This document shows positions 6,279 through 32,954 of a stretch of DNA of 64,000 bases, piece after piece (position 1 is the stretch's first letter; each line of letters starts with the position of its first letter). This stretch comes from a virus. The stretch is taken from positions 1 to 64,000 of IMG/VR virus record IMGVR_UViG_3300047091_000002. One strand, written 5' to 3'. The notes beneath the pieces are model-generated. The model was not told the origin of the DNA, made no database searches, and was given only the letters and a program-made list of their open reading frames with translations. The position numbers were made by a program, and so were the translations under genes.

Positions 6279-7385
6279 ATGCGGGCATACAAATTCAAGA
6301 TTCGTAATCCATCTAGAAAAATAGTTCAAAAATTTGAATTCACCCTCGATATATGCCGCGAACTTTATAACGCCGCGCTTCAAGAAAGGCGCGATGCTTA
6401 CAGACAAGCGAGAAGTCATATCAATTACTATGACCAGTCTCGACAGTTGAAAGAGATTCGGTGTATACGAGAAGACTTCGCTTGTGTACACGCTCAGATT
6501 TCACAGGATGTTTTGCGAAGGGTAGATAAAACATTTAAAAGTTTCTTTTCGAGACTTAGAAAAAGTGGAAAATTTGGGTATCCACGATTTAAAAGCAGAC
6601 TTCGATTTAACTCCTTTACATATCCTCAACATGGATTTAGGCTTATAGATAATAAATTAACTCTCTCAAAAATAGGCTCCTGTCGCATTCATCTTAGTCG
6701 AGAAATGATGGGTAAAGTTAAGACCTGCACCATAAAGAAACAAGTGGATGGATGGTTTGTAATTTTTGTAGTAGAGGAAACCAGTTCTCCTTATTTCCCC
6801 AAGACTAGGAATTCAGCAGGTATTGATCTTGGAGTAGAAAATTTTGTAACACTTTCTACCGGCGAAGTGATAGAAAACCCGAAATTCTTTCATAGGGTTG
6901 AACGAGATTTAAAAATTCAGCAACGTAAGGTCAGTAAAAAGAAGTTGCATGGCTCTAATTGGAAGAAGGCAGTTATCCTACTTAGTAAAAAACACTTAAA
7001 AGTTCATAACCAACGTCGAGATTTCTTTCATAAGTTGAGCCTTCAATTAATCAAGGAATTTGATGAGATAGCAGTTGAGAATTTAAACATTGCCGGAATG
7101 GTTAGGAACCATCATCTAGCAAAAAGTATTAGTGATGTGAGTTGGGGTACATTCCTCCAAATACTTACCTTCAAGGCTGAAAGTGCCGGTAGGAAAGTCT
7201 GGAAAGTCCCCTCCCAATATACATCGCAAGATTGTAGCAAGTGTGGCAATAGAGTACGAAAATCTCTTTCCGAGCGAGAACATTCTTGTTTGAACTGCGG
7301 TTACGTTACTCATCGTGACCATAATGCTGCTCAAAACATACTGGCTCGGACAGCGCCAGTGGCGAGACTTAACGAGGTGATTTGA
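6279..7385 (+). CDS. tnpB: TnpB RNA-guided endonuclease
   Basis: HTH start (YKFKIR...CRELYNAAL), GYPRFKS, RuvC residues GIDLG / VENL / RDHNAA all intact, Zn finger CSKC..CLNC. Confidence 0.96.
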   Translation: MRAYKFKIRNPSRKIVQKFEFTLDICRELYNAALQERRDAYRQARSHINYYDQSRQLKEIRCIREDFACVHAQISQDVLRRVDKTFKSFFSRLRKSGKFGYPRFKSRLRFNSFTYPQHGFRLIDNKLTLSKIGSCRIHLSREMMGKVKTCTIKKQVDGWFVIFVVEETSSPYFPKTRNSAGIDLGVENFVTLSTGEVIENPKFFHRVERDLKIQQRKVSKKKLHGSNWKKAVILLSKKHLKVHNQRRDFFHKLSLQLIKEFDEIAVENLNIAGMVRNHHLAKSISDVSWGTFLQILTFKAESAGRKVWKVPSQYTSQDCSKCGNRVRKSLSEREHSCLNCGYVTHRDHNAAQNILARTAPVARLNEVI

Positions 7386-10295: not shown

Positions 10296-12230
10296 ATGTC
10301 GTTTGAACGGTTTATTATCCAGCCATCTTGGGTTAATAGAGTTACAGAACGGATAAGTAATGCTGATATAGTTGGAATAGATTTAGAAACTTATCCGAAG
10401 CCCTCATTTAAGAATCATTCTAAGGGTGGATTAGATCCTTATCTAAGCGAGATTCGCAGTATTACTTTAGCTATTGCCGGATATTCTTTCTTTATAGATT
10501 TGCAAAAGATCAGAGATATTGAACCTCTATTAAAGGCTTTTCGAGACCGGAAGATAACGTATGTTAGTCACAATCAACGTTTTGAAGTTTCTCATCTACT
10601 AAATAAATACGATACTTTCTTTGAAAGAGGTTTTTGTACTTTTTTAGCTTCGCAAATGTTAACACCTGTATATACTTATGCAAAACATTCATTAGAAGCC
10701 TGCGTTGATAAATGGTTGGGTATAAAACTGGATAAAACATCCCAGAAATCTGACTGGTCTGGAGAATTAAGTCAGGAACAAATAGATTATGCCTTTACTG
10801 ATGCGGAGATTCTTCTACCACTATATGATAAATTTCACGGATTATTAGATCGGGCAGGAATGATGAAGGCTGCCCAAATCGAGTTCGATTGCATACTAGC
10901 TATTGCAGATATGGAACTTACGGGAGTTTGCAGAGATTTAGATATGATAAAAGAACTTGATGCTGTTTTAAATACGCGAATAAATATTCTTAAAGAATAC
11001 CTTCAATATGAATTCCCTAAATCTCTTTTAGGGAAACAACAGAGGAGTTTTCTCTTAGATGATCCTATCAATATTGATTCTCCGTTGCAGTTGAAAAAAG
11101 CGTTCAAAGAAAAAACTGGAATAAGTCTCGAAATTCCTGATGAATACGATAATTCAGGAAAGAAAAAAAAGAAGCCGGGGCTATCTTCTGTAATAGTAAA
11201 ACATAGACACCTATATCCTAAATTAATTGATGCTATTATAGACTATGGCTCATTATCTCATATGAAAGCAAGTTTTGCAGAACCACTTCTTTCGGATGAA
11301 CATATCCATCCTGTATCTGGTAGAATTCATCCCGATTATATGCAATTAGGACAACAGACAGGCAGATGCGCTATGAAGAATCCTAATTTTAACTTTCCTG
11401 CTCCCTATAAGTTCGGACCTGCCGTAAAAGCATCTGATCCTATTTTTGGTCCTAACTATTACTACCCAAAGAGTTTTCGTAATACTATAATTCCGCAAGA
11501 AGGGAATTTATATTCCATAGTAGATTTTGCTAATAGTCAACTGAGAATAATAGCAGATACGCCTTTTGCTAATGAAAAGGCGTTGCAGGAAGAATTCGCT
11601 CTTTCTACGGGTGCTGATCCTTATAGCAGAATCGGAGCAATTGGAATGACTCTACGAGACGGCAGAGAATGGACAAAGCAAGAAATTAAGGCAAGTGGTA
11701 TCAGGCAAAAATACAAAACTTTAACATTAGCCTTAGCTTTTATCTGTTCTGCAAAAAGATTTCAAAGTCAGCAATTGGATGATACTCGCATCGAACCACC
11801 CCTAGATCAATGCGAACAGGAAATCGCTAATTTTTATCAAGCACTTCCGGGGATGAAGAAGTGGCAAAGGGACTTTCCTCCAATTGTTAGGGAACAAGGC
11901 TATGTCCGTACTAAAGCAGGAAGAAAGATATTTATACCACCTGAATACTGCACTGCAAATAGAGCAGTAAATTTTGGAGTAGTCGGTACTGAATGTGACG
12001 GAGCAAAATTAGCTCTAGGAAGATTTTCAAGAGAATTAAGAAAAAAGAATTACGCATCACGACCTGTACTATTTCTATACGATGAAATTATAGCCGATAC
12101 TCCCTCTTCCGAGATAGATGATATAAGAATATTACAGGAAAAAATAATGCTTGATTCCATGCAAGAACAACTGGTAGATGTTCCAGCAGGTGTAGATGGA
12201 CATATGGGAGACTCTTGGGCAAGTAAATAA
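10296..12230 (+). CDS. polA: Family A DNA polymerase with 3'-5' exonuclease, divergent active site
   Basis: ExoI GIDLET, ExoIII YAFTDA, IHPDYMQLGQQTGR, motif A VDFANSQLR, motif B RQKYK, motif C LYDEII; no 5'-3' exonuclease domain. Confidence 0.92.
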   Translation: MSFERFIIQPSWVNRVTERISNADIVGIDLETYPKPSFKNHSKGGLDPYLSEIRSITLAIAGYSFFIDLQKIRDIEPLLKAFRDRKITYVSHNQRFEVSHLLNKYDTFFERGFCTFLASQMLTPVYTYAKHSLEACVDKWLGIKLDKTSQKSDWSGELSQEQIDYAFTDAEILLPLYDKFHGLLDRAGMMKAAQIEFDCILAIADMELTGVCRDLDMIKELDAVLNTRINILKEYLQYEFPKSLLGKQQRSFLLDDPINIDSPLQLKKAFKEKTGISLEIPDEYDNSGKKKKKPGLSSVIVKHRHLYPKLIDAIIDYGSLSHMKASFAEPLLSDEHIHPVSGRIHPDYMQLGQQTGRCAMKNPNFNFPAPYKFGPAVKASDPIFGPNYYYPKSFRNTIIPQEGNLYSIVDFANSQLRIIADTPFANEKALQEEFALSTGADPYSRIGAIGMTLRDGREWTKQEIKASGIRQKYKTLTLALAFICSAKRFQSQQLDDTRIEPPLDQCEQEIANFYQALPGMKKWQRDFPPIVREQGYVRTKAGRKIFIPPEYCTANRAVNFGVVGTECDGAKLALGRFSRELRKKNYASRPVLFLYDEIIADTPSSEIDDIRILQEKIMLDSMQEQLVDVPAGVDGHMGDSWASK

Positions 12231-15271: not shown

Positions 15272-16753
15272 ATGGAATTACGACCATATCAAATAGAAGC
15301 TATCGAAAAATTAAGACAAAAATTTAGAGAAGGAAAAAGGAGAATTGTATTACAACTTCCGACAGGATCAGGAAAAACTATTCTCTCGGCAGAAATGATT
15401 AGAGCATGTTTGGCGAAGAAAAACAAATGCATATTTACGGCAGACCTTATAACATTAATCGAACAAACAAGCACGAGATTTGATGAATATGGTCTTTCTC
15501 ATGGTATTATTCAAGGAAAACATGAGAAATTTGATCCGAATCAACCCTTACAAATATGTTCTATACAGACTTTAAATAAAAGAGAGTTTCCTCCTGCCGA
15601 TTTTATAGTTATAGATGAAGTTCATACATTGCATAAAGCCCACATAAGATTGATGGAGGCTAATCCTGGTATTCCTGTTGTAGGACTTTCTGCGACACCT
15701 TGGACAAAAGGTTTAGGTAGATATTTTGATGATCTTGTAGTTGGTTGCACTACACAAGAACTTGTAGATATGGGATTTCTTGTAGATACAAGAGTATTTG
15801 CTCCAACTATTCCCGATCTTTCAAAGGTTGGAATTAGGGCAGGGGATTATATCGAAAAGCAATTAGCAGAAACAATGGATACTAAACTTTTAAATGGTGA
15901 TATTGTTGACCATTGGCTACGCTTAGGAGAAAATAGACAAACGATTAGTTTTGGAGTAAATGTAGCGCACTCAAAACATATAGCAAGACAATTTCAAGAA
16001 GCTGGAATTTCTGCTGCTCACATAGATGGTTACATGACTGCCCCAAAAGCTGCCGAAGAACGTAAACAAATTCTAGAAAATTTTAGAAATGGAAAAATTA
16101 AAATTCTTTCAAGTGTAGGTGTATTAACTAAGGGTTTTGATTACCCTGGTGCCAGTTGCATTGTAATGGCGAGACCTACTCGATCTTTAATGCTTTTTAT
16201 CCAATGTCTTGGAAGAGGAATACGTAGTTTTCCAGGGAAGTTAGATTGTCTTATATTGGATCATTCTGGTAATACTCTTAGACACGGATTTATTACTGAT
16301 CCCCTACCCTGTGAATTAGATGATGGAAAAAAGAAAGAAACGCCTTTAGTTAAACCAAAGACAGAAGAGAAACTGCCAAAAGTTTGTCCAGTATGTAAAT
16401 TTGTAAAACCGGCAGGCTTAAGAACTTGTCCGGTATGCAGCTTTACTCCCGAAAAACAAAGCGATATAGTACATACAGACGAACAACTAGTAGAAGTAAA
16501 AAAGAGTAAGATAAGCCGTGAGATGAAACAGAATTTTTATTCAGAATTACTAAAAATACAAATAGAAAATAACTATAAAGCCGGATGGGTAGCAAACTGT
16601 TTTAAGGATCGTTTCGATATTTGGCCTCGCAAACTATTAAAAATACCCGCAGTTGACGTAAGTATTGAAACATATAATTATGTACAGGCTAAGAAAATTA
16701 AATATTCAAAAGATATGAGAGGAAAAACTGTAGCGGCCAGTTGCGAACAATAA
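15272..16753 (+). CDS. Superfamily 2 (DEAH) helicase with Zn finger, RadD/YejH-like
   Basis: LRPYQ, PTGSGKT, DEVH, SATP, GFDYP, ARPTRS..Q.LGRG.R, CPVC..CPVC. Confidence 0.93.
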   Translation: MELRPYQIEAIEKLRQKFREGKRRIVLQLPTGSGKTILSAEMIRACLAKKNKCIFTADLITLIEQTSTRFDEYGLSHGIIQGKHEKFDPNQPLQICSIQTLNKREFPPADFIVIDEVHTLHKAHIRLMEANPGIPVVGLSATPWTKGLGRYFDDLVVGCTTQELVDMGFLVDTRVFAPTIPDLSKVGIRAGDYIEKQLAETMDTKLLNGDIVDHWLRLGENRQTISFGVNVAHSKHIARQFQEAGISAAHIDGYMTAPKAAEERKQILENFRNGKIKILSSVGVLTKGFDYPGASCIVMARPTRSLMLFIQCLGRGIRSFPGKLDCLILDHSGNTLRHGFITDPLPCELDDGKKKETPLVKPKTEEKLPKVCPVCKFVKPAGLRTCPVCSFTPEKQSDIVHTDEQLVEVKKSKISREMKQNFYSELLKIQIENNYKAGWVANCFKDRFDIWPRKLLKIPAVDVSIETYNYVQAKKIKYSKDMRGKTVAASCEQ

Positions 16754-19761: not shown

Positions 19762-20505
19762 ATGAAGAAAAATAATAACAAACCGCATATAATCAAGCAG
19801 TTTAAGAACGGCTCAACAAAGCGGTTCTACTTACATTCTTGTTATACTTGTACTGCGCCACTTAAAATCCCGACCGGAAAAACTAAAATAGGAATTTTTT
19901 ATTGTACTTCTTGTAAATATATTAATGGTTATATAGATAATGCTCCAAACCTAATTGGAATGCGAACGGGAAAACTTGTGGTAAAAGAATTATTACCGCG
20001 AGGAACTCTTAAAAGGGGTAGGGCTTGGCGGTGTGAATGTGATTGTGGGGCAGAAAAAATTCTCATTATCGCCCATTTGTCCGGTAAACGAGCCTTTAAG
20101 AGTTGCGGATGTTCTCAATATATTGGTGGTAAACAAAACGCAAAGCCACCGGGGGTCGCCGCGTTTAATCAGCGTATCAGCCAATATAGATTTGGCGCTA
20201 TTAAGCGAAATTTAGAATTTCAGTTAACCGTTGATCAATGTTATAAGTTATTTACTGATAATTGTTTTTATTGTGGCATTGAACCAAGACAAATAACGAC
20301 AATTACTAACAAATCATCTGAATTCGTATACAATGGTATTGACAGATTGGATAACTTAAAAGGCTATGAATTAGATAATGTTGTTACTTGTTGTAAGTGG
20401 TGCAATAGATGGAAAAATAGCTTGACTAAACTCGCATTCTTAGCTAAGGTTAAAGCTATATACGAACATTTAAACCTTAATCAACTTGGAATAGGGGAAC
20501 TATAG
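19762..20505 (+). CDS. HNH homing endonuclease
   Basis: WRCECDCG; CFYCG; NGIDRLDNLKGYELDNVVTCCKWCN. Confidence 0.9.
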   Translation: MKKNNNKPHIIKQFKNGSTKRFYLHSCYTCTAPLKIPTGKTKIGIFYCTSCKYINGYIDNAPNLIGMRTGKLVVKELLPRGTLKRGRAWRCECDCGAEKILIIAHLSGKRAFKSCGCSQYIGGKQNAKPPGVAAFNQRISQYRFGAIKRNLEFQLTVDQCYKLFTDNCFYCGIEPRQITTITNKSSEFVYNGIDRLDNLKGYELDNVVTCCKWCNRWKNSLTKLAFLAKVKAIYEHLNLNQLGIGEL

Positions 20506-21261
20506 ATGCTTTCAGCAGTAATTGGTCTAATTACTTATAACAGACGAGGTTTACTACAAGATTGCTTGGAAAGTATTAATGCTTCAATAAAAAGCAATCG
20601 GAATGCGTTCACTATTATAGTATCCGATGACGGTTCCGTAGATGGAACTATAGAATACCTTGAAACCGAGGCTAAACCATCGCATTTGGTGGATGCGCTT
20701 ATATTAAATATGGGTAGGGGCGGCGTAGCAAGAAATAGTAATAGGATACTAGATTATTATATTGGACTTAAGGTAGATGTGCCATTATTTCTTAGTAACG
20801 ATGATCTCCTTTTTCGTTCATCGGAGCCAAATGTTTTTCAAAGGTATATAGAAGCCGCAGAAAAAACTGGATTTGGGCATTTCGTTTATACTGATCCTAA
20901 ATCTAAATATCCTTATTCATCTGAAATTGTAAATGGAATATCTATTAGAGCTAGAGAACAAGGAGATGGTGTATTTCTAATGTTTTCACGCGAGGCAATT
21001 GAAACATTAGGGGGATTTGATACTGATTTCGGCTTGATGGGAATGGAACACGTATTTTATGCGCGTAGAGCAATTGTAGCAGGCTTGATTCCTTATGTCC
21101 CAGATATTGCTGATTGTGAGTCTTTAGTCTATACTAGACAATACTACGAAAAAGTACCCAACTCTATTCCAAATAAATACGGGCATATGGCAGTTGCTAA
21201 TAAAGTATTTATAGACAAAATGAGTAATCCAGTACGAATATTTGTGCCAATAGAGGTTTAA
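20506..21261 (+). CDS. Glycosyltransferase, GT2 (GT-A fold)
   Basis: LITYNR..L..CLESI, IIVSDDGSVDGT, LSNDD, GGFDTDFG..G.EH. Confidence 0.88.
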   Translation: MLSAVIGLITYNRRGLLQDCLESINASIKSNRNAFTIIVSDDGSVDGTIEYLETEAKPSHLVDALILNMGRGGVARNSNRILDYYIGLKVDVPLFLSNDDLLFRSSEPNVFQRYIEAAEKTGFGHFVYTDPKSKYPYSSEIVNGISIRAREQGDGVFLMFSREAIETLGGFDTDFGLMGMEHVFYARRAIVAGLIPYVPDIADCESLVYTRQYYEKVPNSIPNKYGHMAVANKVFIDKMSNPVRIFVPIEV

Positions 21262-24716: not shown

Positions 24717-25037
24717 ATGTTAATAAGATCCACACCAAAAAGAATATTTTGTATTCCTTGTAAACAATCAACATTAAGAAAAGGATCTAAGCAAATAGGA
24801 AACATATGGTTTTGTAAGGATTGCTTTTCACTTGTTCCAAAATCACCTAAAAAACAAAGACCTGAATTACGACAGGACAACACTACAGGCACTACTGGAG
24901 TAACACACGGTAAAACCAGAACAAGTTTTAGATCATACATAGATATAAATAAAAAAAGAACAGGTCTAGGACATTTTAAAACTTTAGAAGAAGCTGTAAT
25001 AGCCAGAAAAGAGGCGGAGAAATTATATAAATGTTGA
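24717..25037 (+). CDS. Zn-finger plus AP2 DNA-binding domain protein
   Basis: CIPC..CKDC; TGTTGV...F.SYI...LGHFKTLEEAVIARKEAE. Confidence 0.8.
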   Translation: MLIRSTPKRIFCIPCKQSTLRKGSKQIGNIWFCKDCFSLVPKSPKKQRPELRQDNTTGTTGVTHGKTRTSFRSYIDINKKRTGLGHFKTLEEAVIARKEAEKLYKC

Positions 25038-26011
25038 CAATACTGTACTTGGGAAATTTTTCTCTAGATTATTGTACCGAGTTCCAGATTGCCGCAACGC
25101 TGGAATCAATGGGACACTCTGTAATTAGGTTACAAGAAGATATTTATAACAATACAGATGTCTTATATCAAGAAACACTAGCTAATCCTGATGTATTTTT
25201 ATATACTCGTACCCCCGGATTTTATAAAGATAATGCATTTCTTCTTCTAGAAGAATTAACTAGGAGGAATATACCAACAGTATCGTTGCATTTAGATCTT
25301 TACAATGGTTTAAAACGAGGCGAATTACTAAGCTCAGATCCTTTTTGGGCTACTGCTTTTTGCTTTTCGGCGGATGGCGGTAGCGAAGAATTTTTTAAAT
25401 CTTGGGGAGTAAATCATTTTTGGTTAAAGCCGGGGGTATACGATAAAGAATGTTACATAGCAGCCGCCGATAGAGATAGATTTCCCCATGATATAATCTT
25501 TGTAGGCAATGATGGTTCTGGGTATCACCCCGAATGGGAATACCGGAGGACTCTAACTAATTGGTTAAAAAATACGTATGGAGAAAGATTTGCGGTATAT
25601 CCCGGTACGGGGAATTCGGCTATTAGAAGTCACGATCTCAATGTTTTATACGCAAGTGCAAAAATTGCAGTGGGCGATAGTTTATGTTTAGGATTCACGC
25701 ACGAAAAATATGTATCAGACCGATTACCGGAGGGAAACTCTAGGGGCGCTTTTCAGATTTTCCCAAGAATTAAGGGAATCACAGATGAATTTGAAGATGG
25801 GAAAAATATAGTTCTTTATACATTTGGAGATTTCGACGATTTAAAATCTAAAATAGATTACTATCTTCTACACGATGAAGAAAGAGAATCAATACGAAAA
25901 GCGAGTCAACTTTATACAAGCGAAAATTGGAATTACCAGATAAGGATGACGGAGATGTTTAAAGTTTTATCAGAACAACTTCCGCAGATACGTTTAAAAT
26001 TAAGGAATTAG
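25031..26011 (+). CDS. Glycosyltransferase, CgeB/DUF3880-like (GT-B)
   Basis: DIIFVG, LYASAKIAVG, SDRLPE, FEDGKNIVLY..DLKSKIDYYL.HDEERESI. Confidence 0.82.
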   Translation: MLTILYLGNFSLDYCTEFQIAATLESMGHSVIRLQEDIYNNTDVLYQETLANPDVFLYTRTPGFYKDNAFLLLEELTRRNIPTVSLHLDLYNGLKRGELLSSDPFWATAFCFSADGGSEEFFKSWGVNHFWLKPGVYDKECYIAAADRDRFPHDIIFVGNDGSGYHPEWEYRRTLTNWLKNTYGERFAVYPGTGNSAIRSHDLNVLYASAKIAVGDSLCLGFTHEKYVSDRLPEGNSRGAFQIFPRIKGITDEFEDGKNIVLYTFGDFDDLKSKIDYYLLHDEERESIRKASQLYTSENWNYQIRMTEMFKVLSEQLPQIRLKLRN

Positions 26012-26012
26012 T

Positions 26013-27143
26013 GTGCCTTATAAAGATAAAAGAAAGCAGCAAGAACACAGTAAGGCGTATTATTCCGCGAATCGAGAAGAAATTCGTAGAAAATATAGGC
26101 TTTATGACGACCGGATTCGGGCAATCCGAGGTACTCCTCGAAGAGAACCAAGAATTAAATCGGATGATACAATAAAGTGTTATTGTTGTAAATTGTACCT
26201 GCCAAGAGATTTCTTTAGTTCTTTAAATAATTCAAAATGCCCCGATTATTGCAAATCATGCATAAGAATTAGAAATAAAATCTTTAGAAAAAATAGAAAA
26301 ATAAGGTTGGGATTGCCGGATACATATGAGGGTAGAGATAATGGAAGATTTACATCTGCTGGAGTAAAGAGGCAATGGGAAGATTCAGATTATAGAGAAA
26401 AGATGCGATTAGCAACATCAGGTGCAAAAAATAAAAATTTTAAAGATGCAAAAAAGCAGTCACAATGTATAATATGTGGGACTTCATTTTTCTATTATCC
26501 ATCTACTAAAAATTCTACGGGCGAGTATTGCTCAAGAAATTGTATGCATAAATCCCCAAAACGTCGTGCAGCAGTTGCAAGAGCTTTAACTGGTAAGAAA
26601 TTATCCCCATCCCATATCAAATCATTACATGATTCACACGTTGGTAAATTTTTAGGTCCGAATAGCCCCACTTGGAAGGGCGGTGTCGCAAAGATGAACT
26701 GCCATATCAGAGGCTCATTCGAGTATGATAGGTGGAGAACGAGAATATTTGAACGAGATTTATATACATGCCGAGACTGCGGGGTAGTTGGTAAGAACAT
26801 TATCGTCCATCACATTATGAGGTATGCTACTATTATCGCTAAGTATAAAATTACAAATTATGCGGAGGCGGTAAAATGTAATCAGTTATGGGACATAGAT
26901 AATGGATTAACTCTTTGTAAACCTTGTCATAAGAAACTTCACACAAAAGAAACAGAAGAAAAAAGAATGTTGAAATGCATAAATGCCAGAAAATATAAGG
27001 GTATCAGGAAACCAAATTGTAACAAAGGTAATCCATGTAAATGGTGTTTGGGCATTTGGCACGAAAAACATTCTGAAATGTTATCTATTCTTTCTATATA
27101 TGAATCCAATATTGCGGAGAAATTAAATGCAGTATCAACCTGA
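26013..27143 (+). CDS. HNH homing endonuclease with NUMOD3-like segments
   Basis: IFERDLYTCRDCG..VHHI...NGLTLCKPCH; GPNSPTWKGG. Confidence 0.85.
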   Translation: MPYKDKRKQQEHSKAYYSANREEIRRKYRLYDDRIRAIRGTPRREPRIKSDDTIKCYCCKLYLPRDFFSSLNNSKCPDYCKSCIRIRNKIFRKNRKIRLGLPDTYEGRDNGRFTSAGVKRQWEDSDYREKMRLATSGAKNKNFKDAKKQSQCIICGTSFFYYPSTKNSTGEYCSRNCMHKSPKRRAAVARALTGKKLSPSHIKSLHDSHVGKFLGPNSPTWKGGVAKMNCHIRGSFEYDRWRTRIFERDLYTCRDCGVVGKNIIVHHIMRYATIIAKYKITNYAEAVKCNQLWDIDNGLTLCKPCHKKLHTKETEEKRMLKCINARKYKGIRKPNCNKGNPCKWCLGIWHEKHSEMLSILSIYESNIAEKLNAVST

Positions 27144-27585
27144 TTGGGAAGAAAGAATGGCATTAGCCGCCAAGTGGATTCCAGAATACTCGATAGTGGT
27201 AGATTTTGGCGCTGGTAGTGGTAAATTACTTAATTATTTACCAAAAAGATGCTCGTATACTCCTTTGGATAAACTAGATTTGAATTTTAATATTGATAGT
27301 CTACCTAATATTTGTAACGATGCAACAATCGGAGTTTGTCTAGGACTACTTGAATGGTTAGATAATCCTAAAGAATTTCTTTCTAAAATGATTGCCGATA
27401 CCTTGATAGTATCTTATGCAATATTCGGACTAGATCATAATCTAGAACCTAGAGTAGAAAATGGTTGGAAAAATCATTTTAGATTAGCAGAATTAATGGA
27501 AATATTTAGAGATATAGGATATAATATAGAAGAATTTACGTGGTGGAAAGACCAGATATTGTTTAAATTAGAGAGAAAGAAATGA
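27127..27585 (+). CDS. Class I SAM-dependent methyltransferase-like protein
   Basis: VVDFGAGSG motif I; LGLLEWL. Confidence 0.75.
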   Translation: MQYQPDWEERMALAAKWIPEYSIVVDFGAGSGKLLNYLPKRCSYTPLDKLDLNFNIDSLPNICNDATIGVCLGLLEWLDNPKEFLSKMIADTLIVSYAIFGLDHNLEPRVENGWKNHFRLAELMEIFRDIGYNIEEFTWWKDQILFKLERKK

Positions 27586-28217
27586 AAACACCAAATGTAG
27601 AAATATGGAAAGATGTTATTACCTACGAAGGTATATACAGCGTTAGTTCCTTTGGAAATATTAGACGAGATTTATATTCTGGAAAAAATACAAAGGCGGG
27701 GAGAATACTTAAGCCAAGACTCAACAAATATGGGTATCCCTATTTAAACCTGTATAAAGATAAAATTCGTACCTCTATTTGTATACATAAACTTGTTACA
27801 CGAGCATTTCTTGGGGAACCCCCACAAAATTATGTGGTAAATCACAAAGATGGCAGTAAAATAAATAACACTATAGAAAACTTGGAATATTGTACGCAAA
27901 AACAAAATGTTAAACATTCTTATGACACTGGATTAAAATTTGGAAATTTTGGAGAGCGCCACGGCTCAAAAACTCATCCTGAGCGGGTGGCTAGAGGCGA
28001 AAAAAGTAGATTGAGTAAGATTAAAGAATGCGATATTCCCGTAATCTTTTCTCTTAGACGCAATGGAATGAAATTACATCAAATCGGCAATTTATTCGGA
28101 GTAAAATATCAACAAATTAGTCGGATATTGTCGGGAAAGAGCAGAAATACTTTAAACATTTACACTCCGATGTCACCACATAAAAGAAGTTATATCTCCA
28201 TACTGGAAAAGAGATGA
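27582..28217 (+). CDS. NUMOD4-HNH homing endonuclease
   Basis: EIWKDVITYEGIYSVSSFGNIR; IHKLV..AF...VNHKDGSKINNTIENLEYCT..QN. Confidence 0.92.
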   Translation: MKTPNVEIWKDVITYEGIYSVSSFGNIRRDLYSGKNTKAGRILKPRLNKYGYPYLNLYKDKIRTSICIHKLVTRAFLGEPPQNYVVNHKDGSKINNTIENLEYCTQKQNVKHSYDTGLKFGNFGERHGSKTHPERVARGEKSRLSKIKECDIPVIFSLRRNGMKLHQIGNLFGVKYQQISRILSGKSRNTLNIYTPMSPHKRSYISILEKR

Positions 28218-31284: not shown

Positions 31285-32211
31285 ATGAATAAAATACCTG
31301 TACTATGGCTTTATTCAAGAGGATTTGGTGATCAAGGACTGCTGATGCATCTTTTTCGAGGAGATCTTTGGAATACCCCTATAGAATTTGACGAATATAT
31401 AGTTACTCCAGATTCTCAATTGGGGGATTATATTAAATCTGAAGGTGCAATTTTAATTATTCCGGGTGGTTATGCTGCAAGTAAGGGTCAGGAATCTACA
31501 GATTTTGTGAAATCCTTACTACAACGGTATTTCTGGACGATTATTATCCATACTTCAGATGAAGAGATGGCTTTTAATAGCGAACAATTTCGTTCTGGAA
31601 ACGTAAAAACCTGGATGCAAATGTATAATCCTACTAAACATCAAGACTGTGATAGAAAAATTCTCTATTCTTGGTGGGATAATACACTAGAAACTCTAAA
31701 GAATATTCCTAGAAAACCTCTTAATGAAAGAAAACTCTGGGGGTTTGCTGGTCAAGTTACCCATAAAACTCGCAGAGAATTAGTTCAAGAATTAAGTATA
31801 AGACCAAAGGGAGAGGGAATTCTTTATTCCACAGAAGGCTTTGCTCAAGGATTACCGCAAGAAGAGTATCTTAAATTATTAACAGACGTGGCAATAGCAC
31901 CCTGCCCTTCGGGGCCATTGCACCCAGAGAGTTTCAGATGTTTTGAGGCACTGGAAACGGGTTGCCTACCCGTAGTTCAGAAAAGAGCAGAGCAATGGAA
32001 TTCGGAGTATAATTATTGGCGTTACCTAAATATTGATTCTATTATAATTCCTCAAGTAGATTCGTGGGATGAAGTTCACGATATATTGGATTTTTATAAA
32101 AATAATCCCGTAAAATTGCAACAAGCTGCAAATTTAGCAGGTTCTTGGTGGCTCAACTATAAAAGAAATCTCGTAAATAATTTGATATGCGACATAAATC
32201 AACTAAAGTAA
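31285..32211 (+). CDS. Exostosin-like (GT47) glycosyltransferase
   Basis: WGFAGQ..R.EL, Y..LL....APCPSG..ESFRCFEALETGCLPVV. Confidence 0.78.
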   Translation: MNKIPVLWLYSRGFGDQGLLMHLFRGDLWNTPIEFDEYIVTPDSQLGDYIKSEGAILIIPGGYAASKGQESTDFVKSLLQRYFWTIIIHTSDEEMAFNSEQFRSGNVKTWMQMYNPTKHQDCDRKILYSWWDNTLETLKNIPRKPLNERKLWGFAGQVTHKTRRELVQELSIRPKGEGILYSTEGFAQGLPQEEYLKLLTDVAIAPCPSGPLHPESFRCFEALETGCLPVVQKRAEQWNSEYNYWRYLNIDSIIIPQVDSWDEVHDILDFYKNNPVKLQQAANLAGSWWLNYKRNLVNNLICDINQLK

Positions 32212-32954
32212 ATAAAAACATTATATACTTACTCAGAAATAATCTAAATGGCAAATTATACATTGGGCAAACTGTTCAAGGATTTTCTGAAAGATGGTCA
32301 AAACATAAAAACGCTGCTTTTGGTTCTAGGGGTAGGTCTCTAATACACAAAGCAATTAGGAAGTATGGAAGTGAAAATTTCTCCTCAAGAGAACTTGCTA
32401 CCGTAGTATCTACTAATCCTTGTGAGTGGTTGAATATTTTAGAGGTATTTTTTATAAAATATTTTAACAGCGTCCATCCTAATGGATATAACCTACCCTA
32501 TGGTGGTAAAAATGAACAGAGAAGTCAAAAAACTAAACAAGCTCTCAGTAAGTCTTTACGTGGAAATACTAATCGAGTAGGAAAGCATCATTCTGAAGAA
32601 TCAAAAGAGAAGATAAGAATCTCCAATACTGGGAAAAGGCGGTCTTTACAGGCTCGATTAAATATAAGCAAGGCTCATATCGGATTACCGAGTAACTGGA
32701 AGGGCAGAAAACACTCGGAAGAAACTCGTTTAAAAATGAGTAGAGACAGAAAAGGTAAACGGATTGGAGAAAAACGAAAACCGCATACAGCAGAAACAAA
32801 AGCCCTGTTAAGAAGCTTAAATCTTGGTAGAGTCCCACCTAATAAAGGTGTTCCCATGTCACCGGAACAGAGATTAAAGGTAAGCATTGCAAAGAAGAAA
32901 TATTTTGCTGAGAAACGACTGCGGGAGCAACTAGATGCAAATTCAAAATCCTAA
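32187..32954 (+). CDS. GIY-YIG homing endonuclease with NUMOD3 repeats
   Basis: IIYLLRN..NGKLYIGQT, ER...H, E..FIK, GYN; repeated HSEE(S/T)K..(I/M)S motifs. Confidence 0.92.
   Translation: MRHKSTKVNKNIIYLLRNNLNGKLYIGQTVQGFSERWSKHKNAAFGSRGRSLIHKAIRKYGSENFSSRELATVVSTNPCEWLNILEVFFIKYFNSVHPNGYNLPYGGKNEQRSQKTKQALSKSLRGNTNRVGKHHSEESKEKIRISNTGKRRSLQARLNISKAHIGLPSNWKGRKHSEETRLKMSRDRKGKRIGEKRKPHTAETKALLRSLNLGRVPPNKGVPMSPEQRLKVSIAKKKYFAEKRLREQLDANSKS

Follow-up and report, generated by a model that had tools for sequence, protein, structure and literature searches.

Altered active-site residues in a family A DNA polymerase of an uncultured tailed phage and their distribution among its relatives

Can a family A DNA polymerase replace residues tied to sugar selection and minor-groove checking and still replicate a phage genome from ordinary nucleotides, or do such replacements point to non-canonical DNA? 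This question is raised by a gene at positions 10296 to 12230 of a 64-kb stretch of viral DNA (the window; positions 1 to 64,000 of IMG/VR virus record IMGVR_UViG_3300047091_000002), which is the first part of a complete record of 119,487 bp with a 127-bp terminal repeat (G000). This record represents a tailed phage, encoding terminase, portal, major head, and tape-measure-like proteins. The gene product (P0001) has Gln, Phe, Val, and Tyr (Q415, F482, V563, and Y595) in place of E710, Y766, Q849, and H881 (Escherichia coli DNA polymerase I numbering, used throughout for reference positions), although textbooks and recent structural work hold E710, the hydrogen bond linking E710 to Y766, Q849, and H881 to be invariant. 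From these replacements and a nearby island of modification genes, the original prediction had proposed a polymerase adapted to non-canonical nucleotides or templates. The comparisons described below indicate that P0001 is probably the normal proofreading replicase of this phage, with a conserved and compensated rewiring of its nucleotide-binding pocket rather than decay, and they show that Gln or His at the gate position 710 is always accompanied by Glu at position 852.

Identity and active site of the polymerase

The coding region consists of a single uninterrupted open reading frame of 644 codons. Pfam profiles placed DNA_pol_A_exo1 (PF01612) at residues 14 to 182 and DNA_pol_A (PF00476) at residues 253 to 642, the latter scoring 124 bits where the cut-off is 34.3 (and 125.4 bits when the genome was searched), and the protein was assigned to the PHROGs category 'DNA polymerase'. 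Since PF00476 was matched only once across the complete genome, in which no family B polymerase (PF00136) was found, P0001 is, as far as profile matches can tell, the sole recognisable DNA polymerase and replicase of this phage. It carries an intact predicted proofreading exonuclease domain, with D29 and E31 (Exo I), N93 and E97 (for D424; Exo II), and Y165 and D169 (Exo III) all in place (DEEYD in the residue census). Built from an alignment of 68 relatives, an AlphaFold2 model with a predicted local distance difference test (pLDDT) score of 95.2 and a predicted template modelling (TM) score (pTM) of 0.93 superposed on the Plasmodium apicoplast polymerase apPOL, Aquifex polymerase I, and the Klenow fragment with TM scores of 0.74 to 0.83. 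A Foldseek search with this model returned apPOL with an E value of 5e-35 and the Klenow fragment with TM scores of 0.75 to 0.80. By its Klenow-like fold, its PF00476 match, and its catalytic residues, P0001 is a family A polymerase; the near-invariant accessory residues E710, Y766, Q849, and H881, all of them replaced, mark the canonical active-site network and not membership of the family.

Residues were mapped by aligning P0001 to solved structures with HMMER and to E. coli polymerase I, T7 gp5, and phiVC8 DpoZ with MAFFT, and the nucleotide coordinates of the motifs (Table 1) were verified codon by codon. The key motif residues of P0001 aligned unambiguously and without gaps. All residue identities on which the original prediction was built, between positions 11380 and 12090 (residues 362 to 599, from PNFNFP to YDE), held in both types of alignment, namely the retention of D705 (D410), D882 (D596), R668 (R357), R754 (R470), and K758 (K474), and the changes at positions 710, 762, 763, 766, 767, 849, and 881 and in the PNLQNIP motif. 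Likewise kept were E883 (E597) and N845 (N559), and D410, D596, E597, R470, and K474 were invariant in the alignments of the relatives. Several features had not been noticed before, namely the replacement of A852 by Glu (E566, codon 11991-11993), the loss of R631 and Q677, an insert with a net length of 17 residues, and the sharing of these traits by a whole clade. The insert (residues 369 to 394) takes the place of E. coli residues 681 to 689, including R682, and ends right before R395 (R690 in E. coli). Its residues G374 and F394 are nearly invariant within the clade, and the model reached pLDDT values of about 88 to 97 over this stretch.

As had been proposed, the substitutions are coordinated and concern residues tied to sugar selection and to minor-groove or primer-terminus checking (PMC10520511, PMC3715850). 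Judged from the alignment columns, they exceed chance, given that Q849, H881, and G763 were conserved at 93-98% among 239 relatives that keep E710. The change of several 'invariant' residues could in principle be that of a decaying or non-catalytic relic, but this is hardly credible. Indeed, the retention of the catalytic residues, the intact reading frame, and the status of sole polymerase in a complete genome exclude a dead enzyme for practical purposes, and the triphosphate-binding residues are all kept as well, the fold is confidently predicted, and the new residues are conserved throughout the clade.

A clade of altered polymerases and the pairing of positions 710 and 852

In large protein libraries, the close relatives of P0001 displayed 33-50% identity, after which identity fell to about 30%. 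The sampling was based on a library of representatives at 50% identity, of which the best 150 matches were listed; the 264 best relatives were aligned with the E. coli and T7 enzymes and their key positions were read off. The canonical residues at positions 710, 766, 849, and 881 (Glu, Tyr, Gln, and His) were present in 201 of the 264 relatives, whereas 30 differed by Y766F alone and 20 lacked Q849. All of the latter possessed Q710, 19 of them Tyr or Phe at position 881, and their replacements of Q849 comprised Val, Cys, Ala, Thr, and Ser. These 20 representatives were monophyletic in a tree from which the trait columns had been removed, with a Shimodaira-Hasegawa-like approximate likelihood ratio test (SH-aLRT) support of 100, and fell into two subclades with a support of 99 each, one of 14 members including P0001 (subclade a) and one of six (subclade b). 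The clade hence counts at least 20 metagenomic representatives, which are 26-50% identical; all of them come from metagenomic contigs, several of which are 60-131 kb long. The sister group of the clade is made up of canonical stand-alone exonuclease-polymerase enzymes in cellular or mobile-element contexts.

The counterparts of Q415 and E566 were invariant in all 20 representatives, as was G569 of motif 6. Altogether, 11 positions with a conservation of at least 85% in the 239 canonical relatives were altered in the clade (R631, G667, Q677, S707, Q708, E710, G763, Q849, G850, A853, and H881). One of them, G667, lies in the centre of the TGR motif; this motif is Q-H-R in 16 of the 20 representatives and is retained in P0001, the latter thus being exempt from this change. 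Throughout the clade, the R682 loop has given way to an inserted stretch of 17-24 residues that contains a conserved [YF]GP. The altered residue set, as far as alignments and tree can tell, is a lineage trait of a rare uncultured phage clade and no peculiarity of P0001, and it may serve as a sequence marker for a group of uncultured phages of 60-130 kb. Its full form was confined to this clade rather than being common among phage PolA proteins. Indeed, a search of 50,697 GenBank phage records revealed no protein more than 26% identical to P0001 and no DNA match, and tblastn searches with five queries of the Q710 type (P0001, P0170, P0222, P0175, and the L164 protein) revealed no cultured GenBank phage above 33% identity, the inspected matches being canonical. 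A profile search with the 20-member alignment added no clade members, its word index seeming to miss them, and a search for related loci in IMG/VR returned one close relative only (L007), a complete 131-kb genome (G001) that has 39 genes in common with G000.

Beyond the clade, the gate residue and position 852 were found to change together. Among 260 relatives readable at both sites, E852 was present in all 24 sequences with Q710 and in both sequences with H710, and in none of the 234 with E710. On the tree, these represented five separate origins of Gln or His at position 710, and all five independent pairs pointed in the same direction. Scanning IMG/VR for motif A with a gate Gln, without regard to motif 6, added further lineages, and all 15 readable matches contained both E852 and F766; scanning for E852 in motif 6 only gave three viral matches, all with Q710. 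In a combined tree of 346 sequences, Q710 or H710 occurred in 10 separate clades, and E852 was present in 46 of the 46 sequences concerned. Seven of these 10 clades had been identified independently of position 852, for which a two-sided sign test gave p = 0.016 (authors' own arithmetic). The only exception was P0167, in which position 710 is Ser, E852 is missing, and motifs A and 6 are degenerate (DFTRISMR); this protein may represent an inactive or very divergent polymerase.

A two-way rule, in which E852 would occur if and only if position 710 is not Glu, was rejected, as 66 of about 80 matches of an E852 scan of GTDB carried E710 as well, among them Prevotella/Segatella and many polymerase I proteins of the Candidate Phyla Radiation (CPR; Saccharibacteria, Parcubacteria, and Dojkabacteria). 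Because these bacterial enzymes combine E710 and E852, the latter is, in sequence terms, a permissive background and not a marker of the gate swap, and the double-carboxylate state may be a precursor of the gate Gln. The swap itself was encountered in bacterial chromosomes too: Q710 and E852 occurred in polymerase I of rumen Alphaproteobacteria in GTDB (including Candidatus Enterousia) and of one Rickettsiales metagenome-assembled genome, with a motif A reading DYSQIQLR, S763, and retention of Y766, Q849, and H881. The other phage lineages with Q710 and E852 comprised the L164 group, L171, L042, L043, P0143, P0175, and P0222, and H710 with E852 was present in P0107 and P0113. The L164 group (L164-L179 in IMG/VR) consists of fairly abundant phage polymerases of about 660 amino acids, with ADYSQLQLRIFA as motif A, NYIVQGAEGVI as motif 6, and T-T-R for TGR, and no cultured relative above 27% identity was found for it. 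The L043 polymerase, encoded on a 94-kb IMG/VR contig, contains Met at position 766, HDS as motif C, and a Cys-rich insert (CxxC...CxxC) in its N-terminal half.

The pairing is of interest in view of what is known for the Klenow fragment. Its E710Q mutant is a mutator with a low incorporation rate and an overall dissociation constant (Kd) for the correct deoxynucleoside triphosphate (dNTP) of 230 µM versus 0.83 µM, which corresponds to an approximately 280-fold weaker binding, whereas Y766F behaves like the wild type and the E710-Y766 hydrogen bond has been termed invariant in family A (Hohlbein et al. 2013, PMC3715850). Since E710Q alone cripples dNTP binding, the pocket of P0001 looks compensated rather than opened. 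In Bst polymerase I, moreover, E658, R615, Q797, and D830 (E710, R668, Q849, and D882 of the Klenow fragment) form an electrostatic cluster (PMC10520511). The following course of events may be proposed. A first step, shown by comparison, is the replacement of E710 by Gln, which occurs only where the motif-6 helix provides Glu at position 852 (E566 in P0001) and usually together with Y766F. Secondly, the carboxylate of E566 would take over from E710 as electrostatic partner of R668, Q849, and D882, a contact between E566 and R357 being suggested by analogy with the Bst cluster, and the relocated carboxylate would restore the binding of dNTPs, which is lost in the Klenow fragment when E710Q stands by itself. 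A third step, shown to be specific to the clade, is the exchange of primer-terminus and minor-groove contacts, with Val, Cys, Ala, Thr, or Ser for Q849, Tyr or Phe for H881, Q-H-R for TGR in most members, loss of R631 and Q677, and substitution of the R682 loop by the insert. Lastly, the most likely template and substrates of the resulting enzyme are ordinary DNA and ordinary dNTPs, although its minor-groove checking and sugar discrimination may differ, with the intact exonuclease as a back-up.

Such a pairing amounts to an epistatic rule in at least 10 lineages, by which the gate Glu is lost only in the presence of Glu at position 852, and would explain why Klenow E710Q is crippled. A literature search with partial coverage returned no paper on natural family A polymerases with a gate Gln or on a coupling of positions 710 and 852, and the available text of the 2023 reclassification of the family into 19 subfamilies (PMC10201439) does not mention a subfamily with a gate Gln. 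The clade goes further than the rule, as its minor-groove readers are replaced too, and it offers enzymologists and polymerase engineers a natural and presumably efficient scaffold whose sugar and minor-groove pocket is of a different make.

Several considerations weigh against an enzyme of ordinary function. The exchange of Q849, H881, R631, and Q677 took place only a single time, within one clade, and about half of the genes of G000 have no family assignment, which leaves room for an unrecognised modification pathway. By analogy with the Klenow data, the loss of Q849 or H881 is probably costly, making an altered fidelity or an altered tolerance of sugar or minor-groove changes likely, and this could be adaptive for something unrecognised. 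A rival explanation is that fidelity or substrate range has been relaxed or shifted. With the minor-groove check lost, P0001 would be more tolerant of mismatches and lesions, of RNA as primer or template, or of chain-terminating analogues, while proofreading limits the damage; the phage might thereby gain mutations, tolerate damage, or resist nucleotide-based defences of its host. Indeed, Q849A, H881A, and R754A shift the misinsertion spectra of the Klenow fragment and mutants of E710 and Y766 are mutators (PMC10520511, PMC3715850), position 762 governs discrimination against dideoxynucleoside triphosphates (ddNTPs), Leu762 marks distinct phage polymerase groups (PMC10201439), and the exonuclease residues of P0001 are intact. 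However, these effects are extrapolated from single mutants of another enzyme, whereas the new residues are strictly conserved over 26-50% identity, suggesting a tuned rather than a loosened pocket, and P0001 is the sole replicase for 119 kb. A relaxed enzyme is therefore quite unlikely, and a compensated replicase for ordinary DNA is the preferred explanation.

Genomic context and the question of non-canonical DNA

P0001 is part of a replication and recombination module that comprises, in this order, genes for a Rad52-like protein, a TnpB insertion, a 206-amino-acid protein, the polymerase, a PD-(D/E)XK exonuclease, a superfamily 2 (SF2) helicase, a DUF3854/Toprim-like primase, a homing endonuclease, a GT2 glycosyltransferase, and a D12-class adenine methyltransferase (Table 1). 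The DUF3854/Toprim-like family also adjoins the polymerase in L020, L022, and L024. At the place of the helicase, G001 and the subclade-a contig L019 carry DnaB and a beta-clamp-like protein (compare L019:16151-17575 and L019:18999-20057), whereas tblastn did not find homologues of DnaB or of the clamp anywhere in G000. Because an SF2 helicase in G000 thus stands against DnaB and a clamp in G001 and L019, replisome partners are, by gene content, exchanged among phages with the same polymerase clade. The TnpB gene (OrfB_IS605 and a Cas12f-like TNB domain) is located in the early region, at positions 6279-7385. Genes of the homing-endonuclease type (HNH, EndoVII-like, NUMOD4-HNH, and GIY-YIG-NUMOD3; positions 19762-20505, 26013-27143, 27582-28217, 32187-32954, and 231-614) are dispersed over the replication module and the glycosyltransferase island. 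Genes of the RNA ligase family were found in G000 (116494-117828, which is L006:12494-13828) and in L020 (2676-4034), RtcB in L019, and a PNKP-like HAD phosphatase and kinase in L020, which suggests RNA-repair functions in these phages as judged by family assignment. The single tRNA gene of G000 encodes tRNA-Glu (UUC; 91322-91395, which is L005:7322-7395).

Table 1. Positions in the window of the polymerase gene, its domain and motifs, and conserved or notable neighbouring genes.
Feature	Position	Strand	Basis
Family A DNA polymerase gene (P0001), 644 amino acids	10296..12230	+	Open reading frame, Pfam PF01612 and PF00476, AlphaFold2
3'-5' exonuclease domain, residues 14-182	10335..10841	+	Pfam, invariant alignment columns, codons checked
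TGR motif, T355-G356-R357 (R357 = E. coli R668)	11358..11366	+	Alignment, codons
Altered motif 2, PNFNFP for PNLQNIP, residues 363-368, Q677 lost	11382..11399	+	Alignment, codons
Clade-specific insert, residues 369-394, net 17 residues, conserved [YF]GP	11400..11477	+	Alignments, pLDDT
Motif A, DFANSQLR: catalytic D410 (D705), steric-gate Q415 (E710 to Q, codon 11538-11540)	11523..11546	+	Alignments, codons
Motif B (O-helix), RQKYKTLTLALAFI: R470 and K474 kept; F762 to L478, G763 to A479, Y766 to F482, G767 to I483	11703..11744	+	Alignments, codons
Motif 6, NFGVVGTECDG: N559 kept, V563 (Q849 to V, codon 11982-11984), E566, G569	11970..12002	+	Alignments, codons
Motif C, LYDEI: Y595 (H881 to Y), catalytic D596, E597	12075..12089	+	Alignments, codons
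206-amino-acid protein, no Pfam or PHROG match, conserved beside the polymerase; orthologues in G001 and L019	8304..8924	+	
PD-(D/E)XK-type exonuclease, PHROG 2139 'exonuclease' (E 7e-33); orthologues in G001 and L019	13641..14495	+	
SF2 helicase (ResIII and Helicase_C)	15272..16753	+	Pfam
DUF3854/Toprim-like putative primase, weak Pfam match; orthologues in G001 and L019	18112..19125	+	
GT2 glycosyltransferase, 251 amino acids, PF00535, PHROG 2456	20506..21261	+	

The island that the original prediction had linked to the polymerase extends from 20.5 to 37.8 kb and contains genes coding for GT2, GT1-type, and exostosin/RXYLT1-like glycosyltransferases, a polysaccharide pyruvyl transferase, a GP88-family protein, and methyltransferases, as well as several HNH and GIY-YIG homing endonucleases. 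In each of the three subclade-a genomes examined (G000, G001, and L019), the GT2 gene (20506-21261 in the window) stands where the replication module ends, with 37-39% identity, and it is the only well-conserved gene of the island. Only two of the island glycosyltransferases have a counterpart in the complete relative G001, namely this one (38% identity) and, weakly matched, the one encoded at 25031-26011. Eight clade contexts were readable; they share helicase, primase, and polymerase, and no accessory gene, and hence no nucleotide-modifying gene, was common to all eight. One contained a MazZ-type pyrophosphatase and a dTMP kinase, one ThyX and a dCMP deaminase, two sugar-phosphate nucleotidyltransferases, and three adenine methyltransferases, and in six of them a glycosyltransferase or sugar-1-phosphate nucleotidyltransferase was encoded within 10 kb of the polymerase. 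The loci of the sister group were considered as a control for the proximity of glycosyltransferases and discarded, as cellular and mobile-element loci do not make a fair control. On a 112-kb Logan contig of subclade b (L021), a gene for a MazZ-type dATP/dGTP pyrophosphatase (PF04447; L021:9426-9998) lies directly upstream of a polymerase with Q710, A849, and F881, a dTMP kinase and a D12 methyltransferase are encoded nearby, and PurZ was not found within 10 kb.

These contexts bear on the proposal that the polymerase is adapted to non-canonical DNA, be it sugar-, minor-groove-, or otherwise modified, or to unusual dNTPs. According to this proposal, incorporation or copying of such nucleotides would be permitted by the loss of the minor-groove readers Q849, H881, R631, and Q677 together with a sugar pocket remodelled at Q415, L478, and F482, and the GT2 glycosyltransferase may belong to the pathway that produces them. 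It is consistent with the position of the changed residues, which contact the sugar of the incoming nucleotide and the terminal base pair on its minor-groove side (PMC10520511, PMC3715850), with the conservation of GT2 at the module end and the sugar genes near the polymerase, with the MazZ-type gene and dTMP kinase of the one subclade-b locus, and with the recurrence of N6-adenine methyltransferases. Also, Y766F has been termed unique to DpoZ clusters (PMC10201439). This substitution is, contrary to that statement, frequent among the relatives sampled, to go by the alignment. Further, profile searches found PurZ (PF00709) in neither of the complete genomes G000 and G001, and neither a ThyA-type hydroxymethylase nor TGT/DpdA was found in the complete G000, which thus lacks any known base-replacement pathway; a search for the MazZ-type PF04447 found nothing in G000 and G001, but as its control found nothing anywhere, it is uninformative. 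In addition, ThyX and dCMP deaminase in one member fit a normal dTTP supply, most of the island is missing from G001, DpoZ itself retains E710, Q849, and H881, and the gate swap is present in bacterial polymerase I too. Finally, the glycosylations known from phages occupy the major groove and do not require changes of this kind: cryo-electron microscopy of the polymerases of phages with glycosylated thymidine revealed that the major-groove groups face the solvent while the normal gate is kept (PMC13697223), so that base glycosylation would not select for the changes seen in P0001.

Taken together, an adaptation to non-canonical DNA is not supported by these findings and is unlikely. It is a possible explanation only for the clade-specific part of the changes, namely Q849, H881, R631, Q677, and the insert, and its positive evidence is limited to the conserved GT2 gene. 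In its most specific form, the clade would have abandoned the read-out of minor groove and primer terminus (Q849, H881, R631, Q677, and TGR) in favour of DNA modified on the sugar face or in the minor groove, by an unrecognised pathway involving the GT2 of the replication module. Although this is a speculative and improbable scenario, it would, if true, imply an undescribed phage DNA chemistry together with a ready-made polymerase for it. If the preferred reading of a compensated replicase holds and ordinary dNTPs are used, the clade illustrates how an active site can evolve with compensation; otherwise, it is a pointer to an unknown DNA chemistry.

Comparison with known polymerases

The E710Q and Y766F mutants of the Klenow fragment carry the same substitutions as P0001 (Q415 and F482). 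In contrast with the Klenow fragment, which has no E852, P0001 has its gate Gln fixed in a replicase together with E566. The other natural polymerases with Q710 and E852 resemble P0001 in the relocation of the carboxylate from the gate to motif 6 and usually in F766, but differ from its clade in that Q849, H881, and a normal motif 2 are kept, the insert is absent, and they occupy separate lineages of the tree.

Like P0001, the phiVC8 DpoZ (7PBK) serves a phage as its family A replicase and has L762 and F766, and the likeness ends there, as DpoZ keeps E710, Q849, and H881 and is accompanied by PurZ, DatZ, and MazZ, of which PurZ is absent here. The Phe at position B4 of motif B that has been associated with DpoZ (Y766F) is present as F482 and is not specific to DpoZ, since it was the sole difference in the 30 otherwise canonical relatives mentioned above. 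DpoZ was not among the 60 PDB sequence matches of P0001 listed, and an identity of P0001 as a DpoZ was ruled out by the absence of PurZ, the residues at positions 710, 849, and 881, and the closer affinity to apPOL and the Aquifex enzymes. The SP15-like polymerases of phages with glycosylated thymidine (phiLo and YerA41; PMC13697223) are family A replicases of phages that encode sugar-handling enzymes. Unlike P0001, in which Pfam revealed no such domain, they are fused to a uracil-DNA glycosylase (UDG) and keep the Phe/Glu sugar gate (PMC13697223).

The best matches of P0001 in both sequence and fold were the Aquificae-like or 'Hot Spring' PolA enzymes (cluster 8/10; Czernecki et al. 2023), namely apPOL (5DKU and 9QSC) and Aquifex pyrophilus polymerase I (8JRB). 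They have the same two-domain architecture of exonuclease and polymerase without a 5' nuclease, with E values of 1e-27 to 1e-29 and TM scores of 0.74-0.83. These enzymes keep E710, Y766, Q849, H881, and TGR, whereas the clade of P0001 is distinguished by its phage-like contexts, its 21-23% identity over structural alignments, its insert, and its 11 altered near-invariant positions, and is set off from the canonical stand-alone exonuclease-polymerase sister group by a fully supported branch. On these phylogenetic grounds, the lineage of P0001 is an undescribed monophyletic group from uncultured tailed phages of 60-130 kb, standing beside the Aquificae-like/apicoplast ('Hot Spring') polymerases.

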